Below, piece after piece: positions 1 through 5,858 of a stretch of DNA of 5,858 bases. Below the pieces are notes generated by a model. The model worked only from the letters and a program-made list of their open reading frames with translations. It was not told where the DNA came from and ran no database searches. The stretch lies in the IMG/VR virus record IMGVR_UViG_2778261179_000010; one strand, 5' to 3'. The position numbers and the translations under genes are program-made. The stretch comes from a virus (lineage: Duplodnaviria > Heunggongvirae > Uroviricota > Caudoviricetes). The stretch's first letter is position 1, and the number at the start of each line of letters is the position of its first letter.

Positions 1-62
1 GTCGGGAAGATGCGTGATCTGATCCTTCAACTCAGCAAAAGTTCGATTTATTCAACAAAGCC
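1..62 (-). mobile_element. IS903-group (IS5 family) insertion sequence terminus, partial; IS body lies beyond the window start, terminus at base 62
   Basis: Bases 1-62 are the exact reverse complement of 5797-5858 (mismatch begins at base 63 vs 5796). The terminal 18 nt read GGCTTTGTTGAATAAATC into the element, continuing GAACTTTTGCTGAGTTGAAGGATCAGATCACGCATCTTCCCGAC, which I recall as the IS903 end that abuts aph in Tn903-derived cassettes. Identity is from memory, not a search. Confidence 0.75.
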
Positions 63-214
63 CCTTCAAATTACAGAGCACTTATAAATAACAGCAGTTA
101 ATATAAATTGGCTAATAGATTTATTTTTATTCAGCCAAGAGCCATGAATAGGATTCGATAGAAAAAAGTTCAGATAAAAATAGAGATCTACTTCACAAAT
201 CAAACGAGAAACCA

Positions 215-260
215 AAACTTACATCTTGAAATAATCACATTGATTAGATGAATATTTATC
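215..260 (+). promoter_or_regulatory. Candidate porin promoter region: TTGAAA -35-like hexamer (226..231), weak -10 candidates around 249..258, overlapping an OmpR-box-like motif
   Basis: AT-rich region about 60-90 nt upstream of the porin ATG. CTTACATCTTGAAATAATCA resembles the ompC C1 OmpR box (TTTACATTTTGAAACATCTA) as I recall it. The -10 hexamer is poor, so the call is tentative. Confidence 0.25.
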
Positions 261-307
261 GCGCAGTGACATCATTTTTTAATAATAGTTCAAAAAAAGG
301 GCTCACG

Positions 308-1390
308 ATGAAAAAATTAACAGTGGCAATTTCTGCTGTAGCTGCATCAGTACTGATGGCGATGTCTGCTCAGGCAGCTGAAATTTATAATAAAGACAGT
401 AACAAGCTGGATCTATATGGGAAAGTTAATGCCAAGCACTACTTCTCCTCTAATGATGCAGATGATGGTGATACTACTTATGCCCGTCTTGGCTTCAAAG
501 GTGAAACCCAAATCAACGATCAACTGACTGGTTTCGGTCAGTGGGAATATGAATTCAAAGGCAACCGCGCTGAATCTCAAGGCTCCTCCAAAGACAAAAC
601 CCGTCTTGCATTTGCAGGCCTGAAATTCGGGGACTACGGCTCAATCGATTACGGCCGTAACTACGGTGTAGCATATGACATCGGTGCGTGGACTGACGTT
701 CTGCCAGAATTCGGTGGCGATACCTGGACCCAAACAGATGTGTTCATGACTGGTCGCACCACTGGTGTTGCAACTTATCGTAACAACGACTTCTTTGGTC
801 TGGTTGATGGTCTGAACTTTGCTGCTCAGTATCAGGGTAAAAATGACCGCACTGACGTAACTGAAGCTAATGGTGATGGTTTCGGTTTCTCCACTACTTA
901 TGAGTATGAAGGATTCGGTGTAGGTGCAACCTATGCTAAATCTGACCGCACTAATAATCAGGTTATCTACGGTAACAACAGCCTGAATGCATCTGGTCAA
1001 AATGCTGAAGTATGGGCAGCTGGTCTGAAATATGATGCGAACAACATCTATCTGGCTACCACCTATTCTGAAACCCAGAACATGACTGTTTTTGGTAATA
1101 ACCATATTGCCAACAAAGCACAAAACTTCGAAGTAGTTGCACAATATCAGTTCGACTTCGGTCTGCGTCCGTCCGTTGCTTACCTGCAATCTAAAGGAAA
1201 AGACTTGGGTGCGTGGGGTGATCAGGACCTGGTTGAATATATTGATGTAGGTGCAACCTATTACTTCAACAAAAATATGTCCACTTTTGTTGATTACAAA
1301 ATCAACCTGATTGATAAGAGCGATTTCACGAAAGCATCTGGCGTTGCTACCGATGATATCGTTGCTGTAGGTATGGTTTACCAGTTCTAA
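308..1390 (+). CDS. nmpC: Outer-membrane general porin, OmpC/OmpF/PhoE family, prophage-encoded NmpC/Lc/OmpD-like; 360 aa with 23-aa signal peptide
   Basis: Same frame as track ORF 248..1390, but the real start is ATG 308 where a classic signal peptide begins ([23 protein letters not shown], then AEIYNKD). AAGGG Shine-Dalgarno about 8 nt upstream. Porin hallmarks: [82 protein letters not shown]-terminal VYQF. Position next to the Q gene matches nmpC in DLP12. Confidence 0.93.
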
Positions 1391-1400
1391 TTTGATTACT

Positions 1401-1440
1401 AAAAGATATGTTGTGGGAGGCTTTGCCTCCCCAACATATA
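1401..1440 (-). terminator. Long imperfect hairpin (ATATGTTGTGGGAGGC-TTT-GCCTCCCCAACATAT) followed on the - strand by CTTTT; candidate tR'-like terminator for the short transcript downstream of Q
   Basis: About 15-bp stem with one bulge at 1406..1440. On the - strand it is followed by a T-run (complement of 1401..1405). It lies about 140-170 nt downstream of the Q stop, where lambdoid phages place pR'/qut/tR'. Confidence 0.4.
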
Positions 1441-1526
1441 AGTGGCTCCCTCAAGCCACTTCCTTTAGAAGCACAACCTTGCTTCTAACTATATAAACCT
1501 TCTGTTATATATTACCCTTTATTTTT

Positions 1527-1556
1527 GGGGGCGTTTCAACGCCCCATTTTTAATAA
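1527..1556 (+). terminator. Rho-independent terminator for the porin transcript
   Basis: GC stem GGGGCG / CGCCCC (1528..1533 and 1540..1545) with 6-nt loop, followed by ATTTTTAATAATTTTT; about 140 nt after the porin stop codon. Confidence 0.6.
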
Positions 1557-1578
1557 TTTTTAGTAAACAATTGGCATA

Positions 1579-1962
1579 TTAATTAGAGTTATTAACAACG
1601 ATATCCATCTCTAACCGGATATCTAATGCCATTAACATCCCTTCAATTATGCCCTCAGCCTTCTGTAACCTTTTCCCGATATAACCATCAGAGCAGCAAT
1701 GCTTACCTGCCAGTGACATGAATGTCATACCGACTACATAATAATCTACTAATAAATCGTGCAAATCGCTGTTGTTCTTTTTCAGACGGGCCATGCACCC
1801 GCAAATGATCATCGCGTCATCGTCACAACATTGCGGGCGAGATTTTACTTTTGAAGGAATTAATCCCTTAAAACCGGCGGCAATGGACGACCAGGTCACA
1901 TCTTCATGATTATTAGCCGCCCACGCTCCCCAACGCTCAAGAACCATCTGAATATCACGCAT
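1579..1962 (-). CDS. quuD: Late-gene antiterminator Q (phage 82 / DLP12 QuuD family), 127 aa
   Basis: The track ORF 1579..1977 begins at a TTG. The ATG at 1962 ([24 protein letters not shown]...) has a GGAG Shine-Dalgarno about 9 nt upstream and gives 127 aa. Cys-rich core ([29 protein letters not shown]). Synteny rusA-ylcG-Q-porin as in DLP12. Confidence 0.88.
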
Positions 1963-2047
1963 CAACTTACTCCACAAAAATCAGACCAGAACGCCAATTA
2001 CAAGCAAAAATCAACGAAACAGTATTAGTTGATTGTTATCTCTGACT

Positions 2048-2188
2048 TCATACTCCTGCTCCTGTCAGGGTTTTGGCGTAATTCTTCAGTATTCGGTAAT
2101 CGGTCAAAACAGAACCGGGGAAACGATATAAGCGCAGACGCCCCCAGCGGTGGCGAAGACGTTCTGCCATATAAAACTCAAACATCAT
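2048..2188 (-). CDS. ylcG: Small prophage protein, YlcG-like, 46 aa ([46 protein letters not shown])
   Basis: Hand translation of the - strand. Its ATG (2188..2186) overlaps the rusA TGA stop (2187..2185) as ATGA. GGGGA Shine-Dalgarno 5-6 nt upstream. Length and position between rusA and Q match my recollection of DLP12 ylcG; the sequence identity itself is not verified. Confidence 0.5.
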
Positions 2189-2547
2189 TCATTCCCCATT
2201 TCGGTGATGGTCAGTTCCAGCCTCCCACCTTTGGTAACAGGCATCTTCACAACGCGGTAATCAACGACCTGAGCATCATCCAGCCAGAAACCTGCTTTAG
2301 TGAGTGCGTCAAAAGCGGCTTTTTGCAGATTATCCAGGTCACGGCGACGGCGATCCGGCATGTGGCACTCAATGCGGATTTTCACAGGCATAGCCAAGCC
2401 GATATCCAGCATTGCGTTTTTAATGATTCGGGCGACGTTATCGCGGTATGCCTGCCCCTCTGCGCTGACGTGCGTGCGCCCGCGATTATGGCGGTAATAG
2501 CGATTATTGCTCGGAGGCCAGGGTAATGTGATGCTGTAGGTATTCAC
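2185..2547 (-). CDS. rusA: Holliday junction resolvase RusA (crossover junction endodeoxyribonuclease), 120 aa, GTG start
   Basis: Track ORF 2185..2610 trimmed to the GTG at 2547 ([42 protein letters not shown]..., ending TITEMGNE), giving the 120-aa RusA length. GAGGGGG Shine-Dalgarno upstream. The GTG overlaps the ybcO stop as GTGA. Confidence 0.88.
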
Positions 2548-2834
2548 GCCTTGATTACCCCCTCTTTCAGCCAGATAACCTGCGTTCTCGCCATACCTTC
2601 CAGCGCGCATTCTTTTGCGTACTCAGCATCGACAAAATGCGTGCGGCGGTCGATTTCGTCGTGACAGGCAGAACAGGCAATGGTGGCAATAAGGTCTGGC
2701 GGTTTAATACCGGTGCCACACAGTCCAGCCAGCCGGATATGTGCCAGTACAGACGTTTCAGGGTTGCCATTGCATACGCCAGGGATTCTTACCTGGCATT
2801 CGCGACCACGCGCTGCTTTTCTCAAATCAGCCAT
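2544..2834 (-). CDS. ybcO: Prophage nin-region protein YbcO (DUF1364-type putative nuclease), 96 aa
   Basis: Track ORF 2544..2873 trimmed to the ATG at 2834 ([32 protein letters not shown]...), which has a perfect AAGGAGG Shine-Dalgarno. Cys-rich (CxxC-type) motifs. Position between ninE and rusA as in DLP12. Confidence 0.82.
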
Positions 2835-2997
2835 GATTCCTCCTTGCTGCCAGTCGCAACCATTTTTTATCAACCAGGCTGGCGGTATATCCGAGCAGTG
2901 TTGGTATTTCGGATGGTTTTAGCTCAGGCTTACGCTTACGACGATTTGGTACTCTGTAGATGTGTCCGTTCATGACACGAATAAGCGGTGTAGCCAT
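2827..2997 (-). CDS. ninE: NinE-like small protein, 56 aa ([56 protein letters not shown])
   Basis: Not in the ORF track (too short); found by hand translation. Its ATG (2997..2995) overlaps the ybcN TAA stop by 1 nt, and its 3' end overlaps the ybcO start by 8 nt. The sequence matches my recollection of lambdoid NinE. Confidence 0.75.
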   Translation of the reverse strand: MATPLIRVMNGHIYRVPNRRKRKPELKPSEIPTLLGYTASLVDKKWLRLAARRNHG

Positions 2998-3452
2998 TAC
3001 GCCTCCTGCTTGTCGCGCAGCAGCTGGAACTCGCAGCTCTGCGGAATAGTCAGGTGGCAGCCAATATTCATCGCCAAGGCTTCAACCTTACACAGGAAGA
3101 CATACATCTCTCCGGTATCAAGATCGGAGGTATGGCGTAACGACTGGATAGTAGTGATTTCGCCGGTTACGACATCAACCAGGTCCTTGGTTTCATAACC
3201 GAGGTATGTGTGTTTGAGAGCATCTTTTACCCATGCTGCGGTAGCGAACGATTTCCCCCTGCGGATAAGGTATTCACTGATTTCGCTGTACCACATGTGG
3301 CTAAGTGCATTCTGGGAAAGACTGCGTCTCTCGCGCCACGGTTTAAGCACCATGCGAAAGCACTTGCCGTCTTCCAAATAAGGCTGGAGCTGCTGACCGA
3401 TAGCGGTGAAGTTACCGCGATGCAGTTTGATGCCGTCTTGTGGGAGGTTCAC
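2997..3452 (-). CDS. ybcN: Prophage protein YbcN (DLP12 nin-region protein, reported DNA base-flipping protein), 151 aa, GTG start
   Basis: Track ORF 2997..3452; the first codon is GTG (complement of CAC at 3450..3452) with a GGAGG Shine-Dalgarno 7 nt upstream. Protein [30 protein letters not shown]... Synteny upstream of ninE. Confidence 0.82.
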
Positions 3453-3550
3453 GCTTCACCTCCGCAGAGGTCAAACGCTGGATAAAGAAAATCGCAGGTG
3501 CATTTCTGCATCTGTGACGGGAGAAGATAGTTTAGATTGTATGTGCGCAT
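3449..3550 (-). CDS. Small ORF, 33 aa ([33 protein letters not shown]), possible ylcH-like gene
   Basis: ATG at 3550 with a GGGGA Shine-Dalgarno-like element about 5 nt upstream. Its TGA stop overlaps the ybcN GTG start as GTGA, suggesting translational coupling. Size and position resemble what I recall of DLP12 ylcH; unverified. Confidence 0.35.
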
Positions 3551-3571
3551 AAACGTCCCCGTTTAGCGCAG

Positions 3572-3604
3572 AAGTCACCGGAGGAGTTCAAACTCCGGTG
3601 ACTT
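3572..3604. repeat. Perfect inverted repeat / stem-loop (AAGTCACCGGAG - 9 nt - CTCCGGTGACTT), 12-bp stem
   Basis: Seen directly in the sequence, in the intergenic region between the HEPN-cassette stop (3674) and the ylcH-like ORF. No T-run follows on either strand, so it is not a classic intrinsic terminator; it may be an operator, an RNA structure or a module boundary. Confidence 0.5.
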
Positions 3605-3673
3605 AATTATGACAAGTTGATTATTGAAAATCAAAAGTCATTTAAACAATAATGATACCCAGCAAGAGATTTC

Positions 3674-4075
3674 TTATTTTAACTCATAGATCAGACAGTC
3701 AACGATTTCTAAACCATTTACCATAGAATTAGAAACGCGAACTTTACCATCGTTGACTCTAGCAAATCCTTTTAACATTTTATAAACAAAAGCTGAATCC
3801 CCCTTAGCCTCAATTGCTTCTAATGGTATCGGCTTATACTTTTTTGATATGCTATTTCTATTTATCTCACTGATTTTTCTATATATTTCTGCCGGCCCAC
3901 GTTCTGAGAAGTCACTGATAACTAAAATATATCTCCAAGATAGATCTGGGTAATAAAACCACATTGCAGCATCAATAGTTAAATTCTGTAACTTGAGTTT
4001 TTTTAACAAAAATTGACCTGAGAATTCCATATCTTTTGTCAACTCTCTGCCGATTACCAGTGTGCTTTTACCCAT
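3674..4075 (-). CDS. Hypothetical protein, 133 aa, second gene of the HEPN cassette (candidate cognate partner)
   Basis: Track ORF. The ATG at 4075 has a GGAG Shine-Dalgarno about 10 nt upstream and lies 22 nt inside the 3' end of the upstream HEPN gene. AT-rich codon usage like its neighbour. I see no nucleotidyltransferase (GS...DxD) or other recognisable motif. Confidence 0.6.
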   Translation of the reverse strand: MGKSTLVIGRELTKDMEFSGQFLLKKLKLQNLTIDAAMWFYYPDLSWRYILVISDFSERGPAEIYRKISEINRNSISKKYKPIPLEAIEAKGDSAFVYKMLKGFARVNDGKVRVSNSMVNGLEIVDCLIYELK

Positions 4076-4470
4076 TTCAAAACTCCAGAATTTTGGTCAC
4101 CTACAGCATCAAACAATTGTTCGGCCATAGCTTTACTTATGTTATTGTCGTATCTAAATTGCTCGCTCCAGTCTTTAACGACCGACCAGTTAATCTCCAA
4201 CGAAACATCATTTTTTGCGTCAGCAATCAAAATTTGATGTAAGTTGGCAATTTTGAGAAGTTGCGACAAATCATGAGTATATGAATCATTTACGACTTTT
4301 TTGTTTGGAAACTCATGTTGTAAAAATGACTTGGCAATACAGGCCTTCAATGCACATTCAACTGCATACCCACAAAGATAATATGCACCATGAAAAAAGC
4401 CATGATCAAGCAAGCATTTGGCCTCATTAAGCCTAGTGTCAGATAATGCTTCAAGGTCGTTTTTATTCAT
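4054..4470 (-). CDS. HEPN-domain-like protein, 138 aa (candidate toxin/RNase or nucleotide-binding component)
   Basis: Track ORF. The N-terminal helix pair LNEAKCLLDHGFFHGAYYLCGYAVECALKACIAK, the HDLSQLLK segment and C-terminal FRYD fit the classic HEPN four-helix signature. No obvious Shine-Dalgarno. The region is markedly AT-rich relative to the flanking prophage genes. Confidence 0.62.
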   Translation of the reverse strand: MNKNDLEALSDTRLNEAKCLLDHGFFHGAYYLCGYAVECALKACIAKSFLQHEFPNKKVVNDSYTHDLSQLLKIANLHQILIADAKNDVSLEINWSVVKDWSEQFRYDNNISKAMAEQLFDAVGDQNSGVLKWVKAHW

Positions 4471-4715
4471 ACAATTATAACTTGAATTATCCTAATTTTT
4501 ATGATTATACCCTTATCAGGTATGATGTAGGAACTGAAAACAATATTGGATATCATTTTCGGTATTTCTCTGCAAATTCCAGCCCACAGGATCTCGGTGT
4601 ACAATCTGTCGCTGATCGCGCAAATTTAGGGTCAATCACTTCATTTTTTGCATCAAACCCTCACTAACATCGAACGATTATAGTACAAGTAGTGTTCTTG
4701 ACTTCTCATTAAACC
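4471..4715 (-). promoter_or_regulatory. AT-rich promoter region of the HEPN cassette with two perfect TATAAT hexamers on the - strand (4509..4504 and 4682..4677)
   Basis: About 300-nt intergenic region between the ant-like gene stop and the HEPN ATG. The proximal TATAAT is about 34 nt upstream of the ATG. The matching -35 elements are weak (for example AAGTCA). Confidence 0.35.
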
Positions 4716-4769
4716 GTCAGCATTCAATTAATTACAAAATACTAGCGGCATTTCTCTCCCGCAACTTTA

Positions 4770-5378
4770 TTACAGCCGTTCAGAACGTAAATGCGTCAAT
4801 ACTCGACTCCACTTATCATCCTGCCACGGCCGGAATTTTACATGTGCCGTTTCTCTGGCAAGGATTGCCTGTGCCTTATTGAGTATCCGGGGATATTCTT
4901 GTTCGATTGAAGTGAAGCGACCGGCTTCGCGGTGTTCTGCTACCTGAAGAAGCGGAGTGACGTTTTGGCAAGCGGTTAACATTGTGTCACTTGCCCGCCA
5001 TAACCAAGCAAGTGTGCAAAGTTCGTTATCAGTGAATTGTTTTGTGATTGGGGATTGTTGAATTTCTCGATCGAGAATATCCAGCACCCAGCGGCGGAAT
5101 TCTTTGGCCACAGGAGTGCGGGCGAACATGGCGATCAGATGGGCGCCACGGAGGGAGAAAATGCGAGTCTTCTTACGATAATTTCCTGAGGTCGTTGATT
5201 CGACGACCTGAGACATTCCGTCAGTAAACTCATCAATATTTTTGTTGTAGATGTCGGTTACTGCTTTGGTGCTGGCATATTTTAATGCTGCCGCCAATTC
5301 TTTGCTGGTAAACCAGATCTGGTTGTTGTGATTTATAGGAGTGAATTTTACATCGCGGAATGCGAGCTGAGTGACCAT
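4770..5378 (-). CDS. Phage antirepressor-like protein (Bro-N / AntA / P22 Ant N-terminal-type domain; Roi-like), about 202 aa
   Basis: Track ORF 4770..5615 begins at a TTG. The domain signature (LAFRDVKFTPINHNNQIWFTSKELAAALKY ... TRIFSLRGAHLIAMFARTPVAKEFRRWVLDIL) starts right after the ATG at 5378, so that start is preferred. The alternative ATG at 5513 cannot be excluded. Confidence 0.6.
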   Translation of the reverse strand: MVTQLAFRDVKFTPINHNNQIWFTSKELAAALKYASTKAVTDIYNKNIDEFTDGMSQVVESTTSGNYRKKTRIFSLRGAHLIAMFARTPVAKEFRRWVLDILDREIQQSPITKQFTDNELCTLAWLWRASDTMLTACQNVTPLLQVAEHREAGRFTSIEQEYPRILNKAQAILARETAHVKFRPWQDDKWSRVLTHLRSERL

Positions 5379-5540
5379 AGCGATAATCTCGTTTTGAATT
5401 TGAGCTATCACCACCGACGACGCCAATCGACTGGTGGTGGACTGTGCAAGGTTGGCGTAACCGGTCAAAACGAAATCCGGCGCTTCCGAAGAAGCCCTCA
5501 CACAGCCCACCATAATTTTTGTGTAGACGTGCACTGCGCA

Positions 5541-5562
5541 TAAAAAAACCGCGAACGCGGTT
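5541..5562 (-). terminator. Small GC hairpin (ACCGC-GAAC-GCGGT) followed on the - strand by TTTTTTTA; candidate intrinsic terminator or attenuator
   Basis: Seen directly. The stem is short (5-7 bp) but the T-run has 7 T's. It lies about 160 nt upstream of the preferred ant-like start. Confidence 0.45.
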
Positions 5563-5622
5563 ATGCGTCGTTTTGATGTCCGGGACGCCAATCCCGTGTG
5601 CCGATTTTGCGGCAACGCACAG

Positions 5623-5652
5623 AATATAGCGCCGGATAAATAATGTCGTCAA
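5623..5652 (-). promoter_or_regulatory. Candidate sigma70 promoter on the - strand: TTGACG (5652..5647), 18-nt spacer, TATATT (5628..5623)
   Basis: Hexamers match consensus at 5/6 each. The predicted start site near 5616 is about 55-75 nt upstream of the 5541..5562 hairpin. Confidence 0.35.
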
Positions 5653-5796
5653 CCCTTGCATATGGGGGGCGCGATGATCACTACTACCACCATAATCGCT
5701 CCAACTGTTGCAACTACTTTAGGCTAAGACATCACGATTTCCATATCACCTTTAGCCGCCAGACAAACAGAGACTCCCTGTTCTTGGCTGCCAAAA

Positions 5797-5858
5797 GGCT
5801 TTGTTGAATAAATCGAACTTTTGCTGAGTTGAAGGATCAGATCACGCATCTTCCCGAC
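5797..5858 (+). mobile_element. IS903-group (IS5 family) insertion sequence terminus, partial; IS body lies beyond the window end, terminus at base 5797
   Basis: Exact reverse complement of 1..62. Begins with the 18-bp terminal repeat GGCTTTGTTGAATAAATC reading into the element. Confidence 0.75.

Follow-up and report, generated by a model that had tools for sequence, protein, structure and literature searches.

The locus described here raises the question of whether the expression of a prophage porin gene is altered when an insertion sequence (IS) ends a short distance upstream of its start codon, either through the removal of upstream regulatory sites or through transcription read out of the element into the gene, and of what role an OmpR-box-like motif plays in the upstream region that has been retained. 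The window, that is the whole analysed stretch of 5,858 nucleotides from a virus of the Caudoviricetes (IMG/VR record IMGVR_UViG_2778261179_000010), begins in the IS end, continues through the porin gene and its flanking regions, and closes in a second IS end, as shown in Table 1. Sequence identity, coordinates, the orientation of the IS and the pattern of conservation come from the present analysis, while the transcription start site (TSS), the occupancy and repression by OmpR, the dependence on CRP and the promoter deletion are transferred from the K-12 literature on identical sequence.

Table 1. Coordinates of the features in the window; numbers with a sign are relative to the mapped TSS.
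Feature	Position	Strand	Details
IS903B-type end (IS5 family), terminal 62 bp, transposase-start (left) end	1..62	-	62/62 identity
First 9 bp of prophage DNA	63..71		CCTTCAAAT; presumed inner copy of the target duplication
Proximal CRP site	180..200		core AGAGATCTACTTCACA at 182..197, centred at -73.5; equals PA-2 misc_binding 'CRP'
OmpR-box-like 20-mer	218..237	+	CTTACATCTTGAAATAATCA; -45..-26, overlaps the -35 hexamer; probable repressor operator
Sigma-70 promoter of the porin	226..263	+	-35 TTGAAA 226..231, 18-bp spacer, -10 GAATAT 250..255, TSS G263
5' UTR, 45 nt	263..307	+	ribosome-binding site AAGGG at 297..301
Porin gene, nmpC/lc type	308..1390	+	360 aa; signal peptide 308..376; C-terminal Phe
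Structured 3' UTR ending in an intrinsic terminator	1391..1551	+	corresponds to the nmpC/lc downstream region
Second IS903B end	5797..5858	+	exact reverse complement of 1..62; 62/62 identity

The porin gene was found to be complete, in agreement with the first-pass annotation, which had described an intact gene with a signal peptide and a C-terminal aromatic residue. The Pfam profile Porin_1 spans the open reading frame fully (E 3.1e-153, profile positions 1–337 of 337), the NCBIfam OmpC subfamily model gives 518 bits against a cutoff of 484, the N-terminal 23 amino acids are the same as the sig_peptide annotated for the lc gene of phage PA-2, and the protein ends in ...VYQF. Residues 24–360 align end to end with the solved chains of OmpK37, OmpC, PhoE and OmpF, a correspondence drawn from sequence alignment only. 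The start codon is the ATG at position 308, not 309. The closest relative compared is the porin of the O26:H11/O111 prophages (annotated as 'ompC', WP_000737278.1), which shares 358 of 360 residues and whose prophages carry no IS at either boundary. The comparisons with NmpC of K-12, from which IS5 was removed in silico, and with Lc of PA-2 each gave 330 identical positions out of 366 (90%), with the differences grouped in a few short stretches and the first 148 residues the same as in K-12. The K-12 gene is broken by IS5 near its 3' end, whereas the copy in the window is intact, and the Lc protein has 365 amino acids against 360 here. PA-2 lc (J02580) further resembles the porin of the window in gene family, signal peptide, a promoter region with a CRP site and the downstream region, while it keeps the complete intergenic region with a second CRP-like site.

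The surroundings of the gene are likewise familiar. As in the cryptic prophage DLP12 (qsr') of K-12, where nmpC lies next to quuD, the porin is directly followed by a convergent late antiterminator gene Q (Phage_antitermQ, quuD type; 1579..1962, minus strand). The other side differs, as K-12 has the holin gene essD upstream of the porin and the window has IS903B; the holin side has been taken over by the IS, and in IS-free relatives the holin is located 588 bp upstream. In the public collection, 17,488 blocks are indexed with the exact porin protein, the arrangement holin-porin-Q in a prophage was observed in 10 of 10 contexts inspected for it, all of them IS-free, and the locus (at least 80% coverage) occurs in 2,473 of 5,426 complete E. 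coli genomes. Because of these frequencies and contexts, the gene is, judged by its sequence, the common nmpC/lc porin of DLP12/PA-2-type lambdoid prophages, which is already well studied. It is an ordinary, intact general porin carried as a 'moron' by lambdoid prophages, in which it lies between Q and the holin and is encoded on the opposite strand.

A genuine IS terminus at base 62, about 245 bp before the start codon, had been proposed, and it is borne out by the comparison with annotated elements. Positions 1..62 are identical at 62 of 62 positions to the annotated IS903B end in p4M18F, including the terminal inverted repeat GGCTTTGTTGAATAAATC, and the annotated transposase gene, on the minus strand, starts with a TTG at base 30 and is read to the left, away from the window interior. 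The distance from the IS terminus to the porin ATG is exactly 245 bases (63..307), and the IS end stands at -201 relative to the mapped TSS. The IS-free relatives run through the 62/63 junction without a break, and O26, K-12 and PA-2, all IS-free there, read ...TTGAA followed directly by CCTTCAAAT... across it. Insertion of IS903 duplicates 9 bp of its target. The same IS end matches more than 5000 plasmid records, and IS903B is overwhelmingly plasmid-associated in the collection searched.

What remains between the IS and the start codon is nearly the same as in well-characterised relatives. A comparison of this upstream region with IS-free prophages, which the first-pass annotation had put forward as a check, showed positions 63..307 to be about 99% identical both to the nmpC upstream region of K-12 and to O26, and identical to K-12 from 100 to 307. 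The 245 bp that K-12 shares with the window at this level include the TSS, the -35 and -10 hexamers, the CRP site and the OmpR-bound stretch, and the identical first 148 residues and the nearly identical 3' UTR further downstream extend the likeness. For K-12, a genome-wide table of start sites (Kim et al. 2012, PMC3415461 supplement) places the TSS of nmpC at 576093 of NC_000913.2, counts 331 reads for it, and gives a 45-nt 5' UTR and a 51-nt promoter string, and 5'RACE identified the TSS as 'G' (PMC11677980). The published 51-nt string equals window 213..263 exactly and ends at the TSS, so the start site is placed at G263. From this mapped TSS we infer the -35 and -10 hexamers given in Table 1. 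Some phage records annotate another in-frame ATG, at 248, as the porin start, but this codon precedes the TSS and so cannot serve as the start codon.

The proximal CRP site has the same sequence as a misc_binding feature 'CRP' annotated at 1363..1383 in J02580, the record of PA-2 lc, and is invariant in eight IS-free relatives, in whose alignment the whole stretch 165..300 is almost invariant. In K-12, nmpC was recovered among the CRP targets in genomic SELEX (PMC3105977), and the promoter PnmpC was reported to have CRP as its activator and OmpR, IHF and MprA as its repressors; a knock-out of PnmpC, which deletes the equivalent of approximately window 111..307, abolished the contribution of the promoter (PMC11677980). 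Transferred to the window, these observations suggest that the porin would be expressed from its own sigma-70 promoter with the TSS at G263, that cAMP-CRP bound at about -73.5 would help this expression, and that small RNAs would modulate the porin after transcription. Coll and colleagues reportedly mapped, in 1994, cis-acting pH-regulatory sequences of nmpC.

The OmpR-box-like motif, which had been noticed near 217..238 for its resemblance to the C1 site of ompC, requires a distinction between the similarity and the site. The sequences of the OmpR sites C1–C3 and F1–F3 were confirmed in the K-12 genome before the comparison, and 218..237 matches C1 at 14 of 20 positions. Within the window, however, seven 20-mers reach 14/20 to one of the six sites, the box at 218..237 being fourth by PWM, and among dinucleotide shuffles of 63..307, 53% reach at least 14/20 to some OmpR site and 7% reach this level to C1 on the plus strand. 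The shuffle test shows a similarity no better than chance, and the resemblance to C1 was dropped as evidence in itself. No other plus-strand 20-mer in 63..307 reaches 13/20 to the OmpR sites, and on the opposite strand matches of 13/20 were observed at 147..166, 153..172 and 203..223. Three tandem 20-bp OmpR sites of the ompC/ompF type are not present in this region, which holds a single C1-like 20-mer at -45..-26. The box is invariant in the eight IS-free relatives, which vary elsewhere in the region.

The site itself gains credibility from binding in vivo. In the OmpR ChIP-exo experiment in K-12, a peak for nmpC was recorded at 576106..576166 and classed as repression, and nmpC was up 2.4-fold in the ompR knock-out (PMC5438342 and its supplement). 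The coordinates belong to genome version 2, as the ompF entry fits that version and the ATG of nmpC is numbered 576048 there, against 576825 in version 3; they convert to 58..118 bp upstream of the ATG, that is window 190..250, centred at -43, with the box inside. Since the peak converts to this interval, binding of OmpR at the box is credible, and OmpR very probably binds the indicated stretch. The nmpC peak is weak, with a signal/noise of 2.26, and the table gives a peak-to-TSS distance of +43 where its coordinates give -43 (PMC5438342 supplement), which we treat as a slip of sign. The alternative TSS at window 177 that +43 would imply was rejected, as this base is not the G found by 5'RACE and has no promoter, and the TSS table gives 576093 with a 45-nt UTR.

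The claim of an OmpR box is thus retained in part: a 14/20 match to C1 does exist at 218..237 and falls within the K-12 peak, while its similarity to C1 is at chance level and the effect reported for OmpR is repression. The arrangement would be that of one operator covering the -35 hexamer, as fits a repressor, and not that of an activating site like C1 of ompC. At the ompC promoter, three tandem OmpR sites (C1-C2-C3, about -100 to -40) are activating, whereas the window has one box over -35, at the counterpart of K-12 DNA that is occupied by OmpR in vivo and for which repression is reported. OmpR would repress the porin by occupying this one box, presumably through occlusion of the -35 hexamer.

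With the promoter unit defined, the consequences of the IS can be considered. The IS-free holin-porin intergenic region measures 588 bp, of which the IS displaces the distal 343 bp; the -35 and -10 hexamers, the OmpR box, the proximal CRP site and the knock-out stretch of about 111..307 are all retained downstream of the IS. In the alignment of the eight IS-free relatives, the porin-proximal block (165..300) and a holin-proximal block are each nearly invariant, and the most variable stretch, 80 columns with 25 variable positions, holds the IS junction. The insertion point of IS903B lies 200 bp before the TSS, where the 588-bp region is least conserved, and the element separates the porin from the lysis genes and the distal conserved block, with the promoter unit left untouched. 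A mosaic module boundary at the IS site (base 63) was considered and ruled out, only a local peak of variability being found there: every porin-bearing phage found keeps the entire 588-bp intergenic region, and in porin-less phages homology is lost about 16 bp upstream of the holin ATG. Since the porin-bearing phages carry the full 588 bp and the porin-less ones break near the holin ATG, no module boundary lies at base 63.

The first-pass annotation had suggested that the IS might remove upstream regulatory sites, and a change of porin regulation by the loss of such elements (a distal CRP-like site, an IHF/H-NS-dependent region or pH-response sequences), which would leave the porin mis-regulated or de-repressed, is in our estimate unlikely. 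The displaced 343 bp do include the CRP-like site CTGTGTGACGAAGTAACCACT, which is predicted in the PA-2 record, stands in IS-free relatives 159–179 bp past the point of the IS junction (about -367), and is absent from the window. The displaced stretch is almost invariant among the eight relatives, so that a long-range role is conceivable, nmpC is reportedly also under IHF and MprA (PMC11677980), and the region 63..307 is AT-rich, with 29% G+C. However, a position of about -367 is far from those from which CRP usually activates, the site matches 7 of 10 core positions, and the displaced conserved block also holds a strong hairpin and a recorded minor TSS of essD, the divergently oriented holin gene. 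Because the hairpin and the essD TSS lie beside the distal site, its conservation may serve the lysis side and not the porin. The window keeps the promoter fragment used in experiments, together with the proximal CRP site and the interval of the OmpR peak. No site with experimental support is therefore lost, and only the predicted distal CRP-like site is displaced.

Read-out transcription from the IS had also been envisaged, and a supply of transcripts to the porin by the element, whether through read-through or from an outward-facing or hybrid promoter in its end, appears highly improbable. IS elements of several families do drive neighbouring transcription, and the native TSS is only 200 bp from the IS end, but here the porin-facing end is the transposase-start end, so that transcription from the transposase promoter is directed away from the gene. 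A consensus scan of positions 1..110 on the plus strand found no outward promoter-like site, within 1..62 or beyond it, and a literature search of titles and abstracts yielded nothing relevant on IS903B as a promoter donor beside porin genes. The native promoter, moreover, is intact and its K-12 counterpart is active, as seen from the 331 reads at its TSS. Because the promoter unit is intact and the transposase gene points away, the IS most likely has little or no effect on the expression of the porin, and the insertion can be regarded as probably neutral for the porin.

Transcription of the porin would end at 1528..1551, after a structured 3' UTR. The intrinsic terminator consists of GGGGCGTTTCAACGCCCC followed by ATTTTT (1528..1551), with 161 nt from the stop codon to its T-run; it lies outside the interval 63–1390, and the claim that the porin has its own terminator is correct. 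The 3' UTR differs from the downstream regions of K-12 nmpC and PA-2 lc at a handful of positions over approximately 210 aligned ones, and its predicted fold comprises four hairpins and the terminator, with -61.5 kcal/mol and z = -8.6. This structured 3' UTR is common to nmpC and lc and was absent from the first-pass annotation. The Rfam search gave no match in the porin UTRs; its only hits, C4, isrK and c4-a1b1, are distant from the gene, at the other end of the window. PMC3333887 cites Castillo-Keller et al. 2006 for an action of IpeX on ompC mRNA.

The gene lc of phage PA-2 is the classic case of lysogenic conversion by a porin, and the 3' UTR would offer a more specific basis for the idea of lysogenic conversion here, one that is already known; an RNA activity of this region in the window is putative. 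We take the 3' UTR region to be ipeX, whose RNA is said to lower OmpC and OmpF in K-12 and PA-2, as Castillo-Keller and colleagues reportedly described in 2006.

The porin is part of a longer prophage segment. Lambdoid prophages in 140 complete E. coli genomes, O26:H11 and O111 among them, match positions 63..5796 colinearly at 99.3% identity and have no IS at either boundary. The segment carries the porin, Q, ylcG, rusA, ybcO, ninE, ybcN, a HEPN gene and an unknown gene overlapping it, and a Bro-N/P22AR_C antirepressor-like gene. Of the 42 nucleotide differences from the O26/O111-type prophages, 40 fall in 63..1549, which indicates a porin allele of partly different ancestry. The mirror-image IS end at 5797..5858 had been missed by the first-pass annotation. 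Both IS copies show the same end to the segment and are thus inverted relative to each other, and three origins are compatible with the window alone: two insertions in situ, an IS-mediated inversion, and a transposed composite element. The candidate inner copies of the 9-bp duplication at the two IS junctions are CCTTCAAAT and CTGCCAAAA.

That the inverted IS903B ends delimit a composite transposon of Tn903 architecture, by which the porin-Q-nin-HEPN-antirepressor block was moved out of the prophage, for example to a plasmid, is a reading that we consider doubtful. The resemblance to Tn903 (IS903 - aph(3')-Ia - IS903) is real insofar as both have two inverted IS903-type copies with the same terminal 62 bp facing the centre: the 62-bp ends of the window are identical and inverted at 1..62 and 5797..5858 with the transposase-start ends inward, 26 plasmid records show this IS903 end directly next to the central aph(3')-Ia region of Tn903-derived modules, and the plasmid association of IS903B fits such a vehicle. 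The cargo of Tn903 is a resistance gene, while that of the window is 5.7 kb of prophage DNA, and intact prophages match this inner segment colinearly from end to end, as insertions in situ or an inversion would also give. The IS/porin junction was found in none of 72,556 plasmids and 5,426 E. coli genomes (megablast of 1..260), nor, by exact junction patterns, in species-representative genomes, metagenomes and viral contigs, so that none of the plasmid, genome, metagenome and viral collections searched contains it. That both stubs measure 62 bp suggests that the window is a contig whose assembly stopped in a repeat; it includes 62 bp of each IS copy, with the outer flanks beyond it. The record pRAx was set aside as a natural example of Tn903, being an engineered construct.

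It is improbable that a functional Tn903-type transposon captured the porin with its porin-silencing 3' UTR, Q, the nin genes, the HEPN pair and the antirepressor under C4/isrK RNA control and carried this block out of a prophage. If this were true, outer-membrane remodelling would be transposon- or plasmid-borne, and the IS-bracketed block would be modestly interesting for porin mobilisation only if the transposon lies outside a prophage. The porin, its promoter, its control by CRP and OmpR and its downstream RNA region have long been known from nmpC of K-12 and lc of PA-2. What is useful here is the role of the OmpR box, which would be that of a repressor operator, the placement of the IS outside the promoter unit, and the assignment of the start codon to the ATG at 308; beyond annotation the locus is of little importance.

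The 62-bp IS903B end at window 1..62 recurs as an exact inverted copy at the opposite window end, 5797..5858, and the 5.7-kb prophage segment is therefore wholly bracketed by inverted IS copies, both of which have the end bearing the transposase start pointing inward to the prophage DNA. The arrangement resembles that of Tn903 in that an inverted IS pair, seen here at the window ends only, surrounds a central segment, which in this case is the 5.7-kb prophage DNA. The equal lengths of the two stubs suggest that the window is a contig broken in the repeat. Insertions were also observed in related prophages, such as a 768-bp insertion in the holin-porin intergenic region of another E. coli genome with an identical porin (CP049179.1; about 6843..7610 of locus L009), which lies ~385 bp upstream of the ATG and has the size of IS1 and an 8-bp overlap; and an IS1-family transposase located somewhere inside the match of strain PEC240 to the 5.7-kb segment, indicating that IS hits recur in and around this part of the prophage.

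In the intergenic part displaced by the IS, as represented by the IS-free O26 prophage locus L001 (3790..3845), a conserved hairpin, AAAAACCCGCTCGACGGCGGGTTT, adjoins the distal CRP-like site, and directly after the hairpin K-12 has a recorded minor TSS (7 reads) for the divergent holin gene essD. On the phage late strand the hairpin has the look of a terminator or of a processing site preceding the lysis genes. A 494-bp stretch of a record named 'Bacillus thuringiensis CT-43 plasmid' (HM037272.1, 58002..58495) is annotated as NmpC precursor and is 98.8% identical to the upstream region and 5' end of E. coli nmpC; this probably represents E. coli contamination or chimerism of the record.

In some phage records (PhiR49_1 and ev017) the porin is annotated from an in-frame ATG 60 nt upstream, giving a protein of 380 aa (CDS starts of L019 and L021; window 248..307), and these starts are probably wrong because the upstream ATG (248) lies 5' of the mapped TSS, G263. 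The porin 5' UTR opens with GCAGTGAC (window 264..271), which is similar to the motif GCAGTGGC of the ompC and ompF leaders, and the nmpC mRNA is reported to be targeted by RybB in E. coli (PMC3333887). The 3' UTR (window 1391..1551) displays strong predicted structure, with four hairpins and a terminator (folding z = -8.6), and an Rfam search returned no family for it. The regions downstream of K-12 nmpC and PA-2 lc are nearly identical to it and have been described as the region of the porin-repressing RNA ipeX.

Other genes and RNAs of the segment.
Feature	Window position	Strand	Match
C4 antisense RNA	within 5430..5629	minus	Rfam 82.5 bits
isrK	within 5430..5629	minus	Rfam 64.1 bits
c4 a1/b1 target	within 5430..5629	minus	Rfam 40.6 bits
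HEPN-domain protein gene	4054..4470	minus	Pfam E 3e-06
133-aa protein gene, downstream of HEPN gene	3674..4075	minus	no family match

The three RNA matches, which scored above or near the Rfam gathering score, are located just upstream of a Bro-N/P22AR_C antirepressor-like gene (4770..5378), and this layout resembles an immI-like antisense system of the P1/P7 type that controls an antirepressor, here within a lambdoid prophage. The HEPN gene and its neighbor are small, overlapping genes of the nin region (window 3674..4470), the latter with no family found in Pfam and NCBIfam scans; the two may be partners in a toxin-antitoxin or defence system.

Differential divergence from the O26 prophage was observed along the segment. 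The porin gene and its flanks (window 63..1549 against L001 4001..5487) contain 40 of the 42 differences, most of them spaced by multiples of three, whereas the remaining 4.2 kb contains two, indicating that the porin allele has a recombinational history different from that of the rest of the segment.
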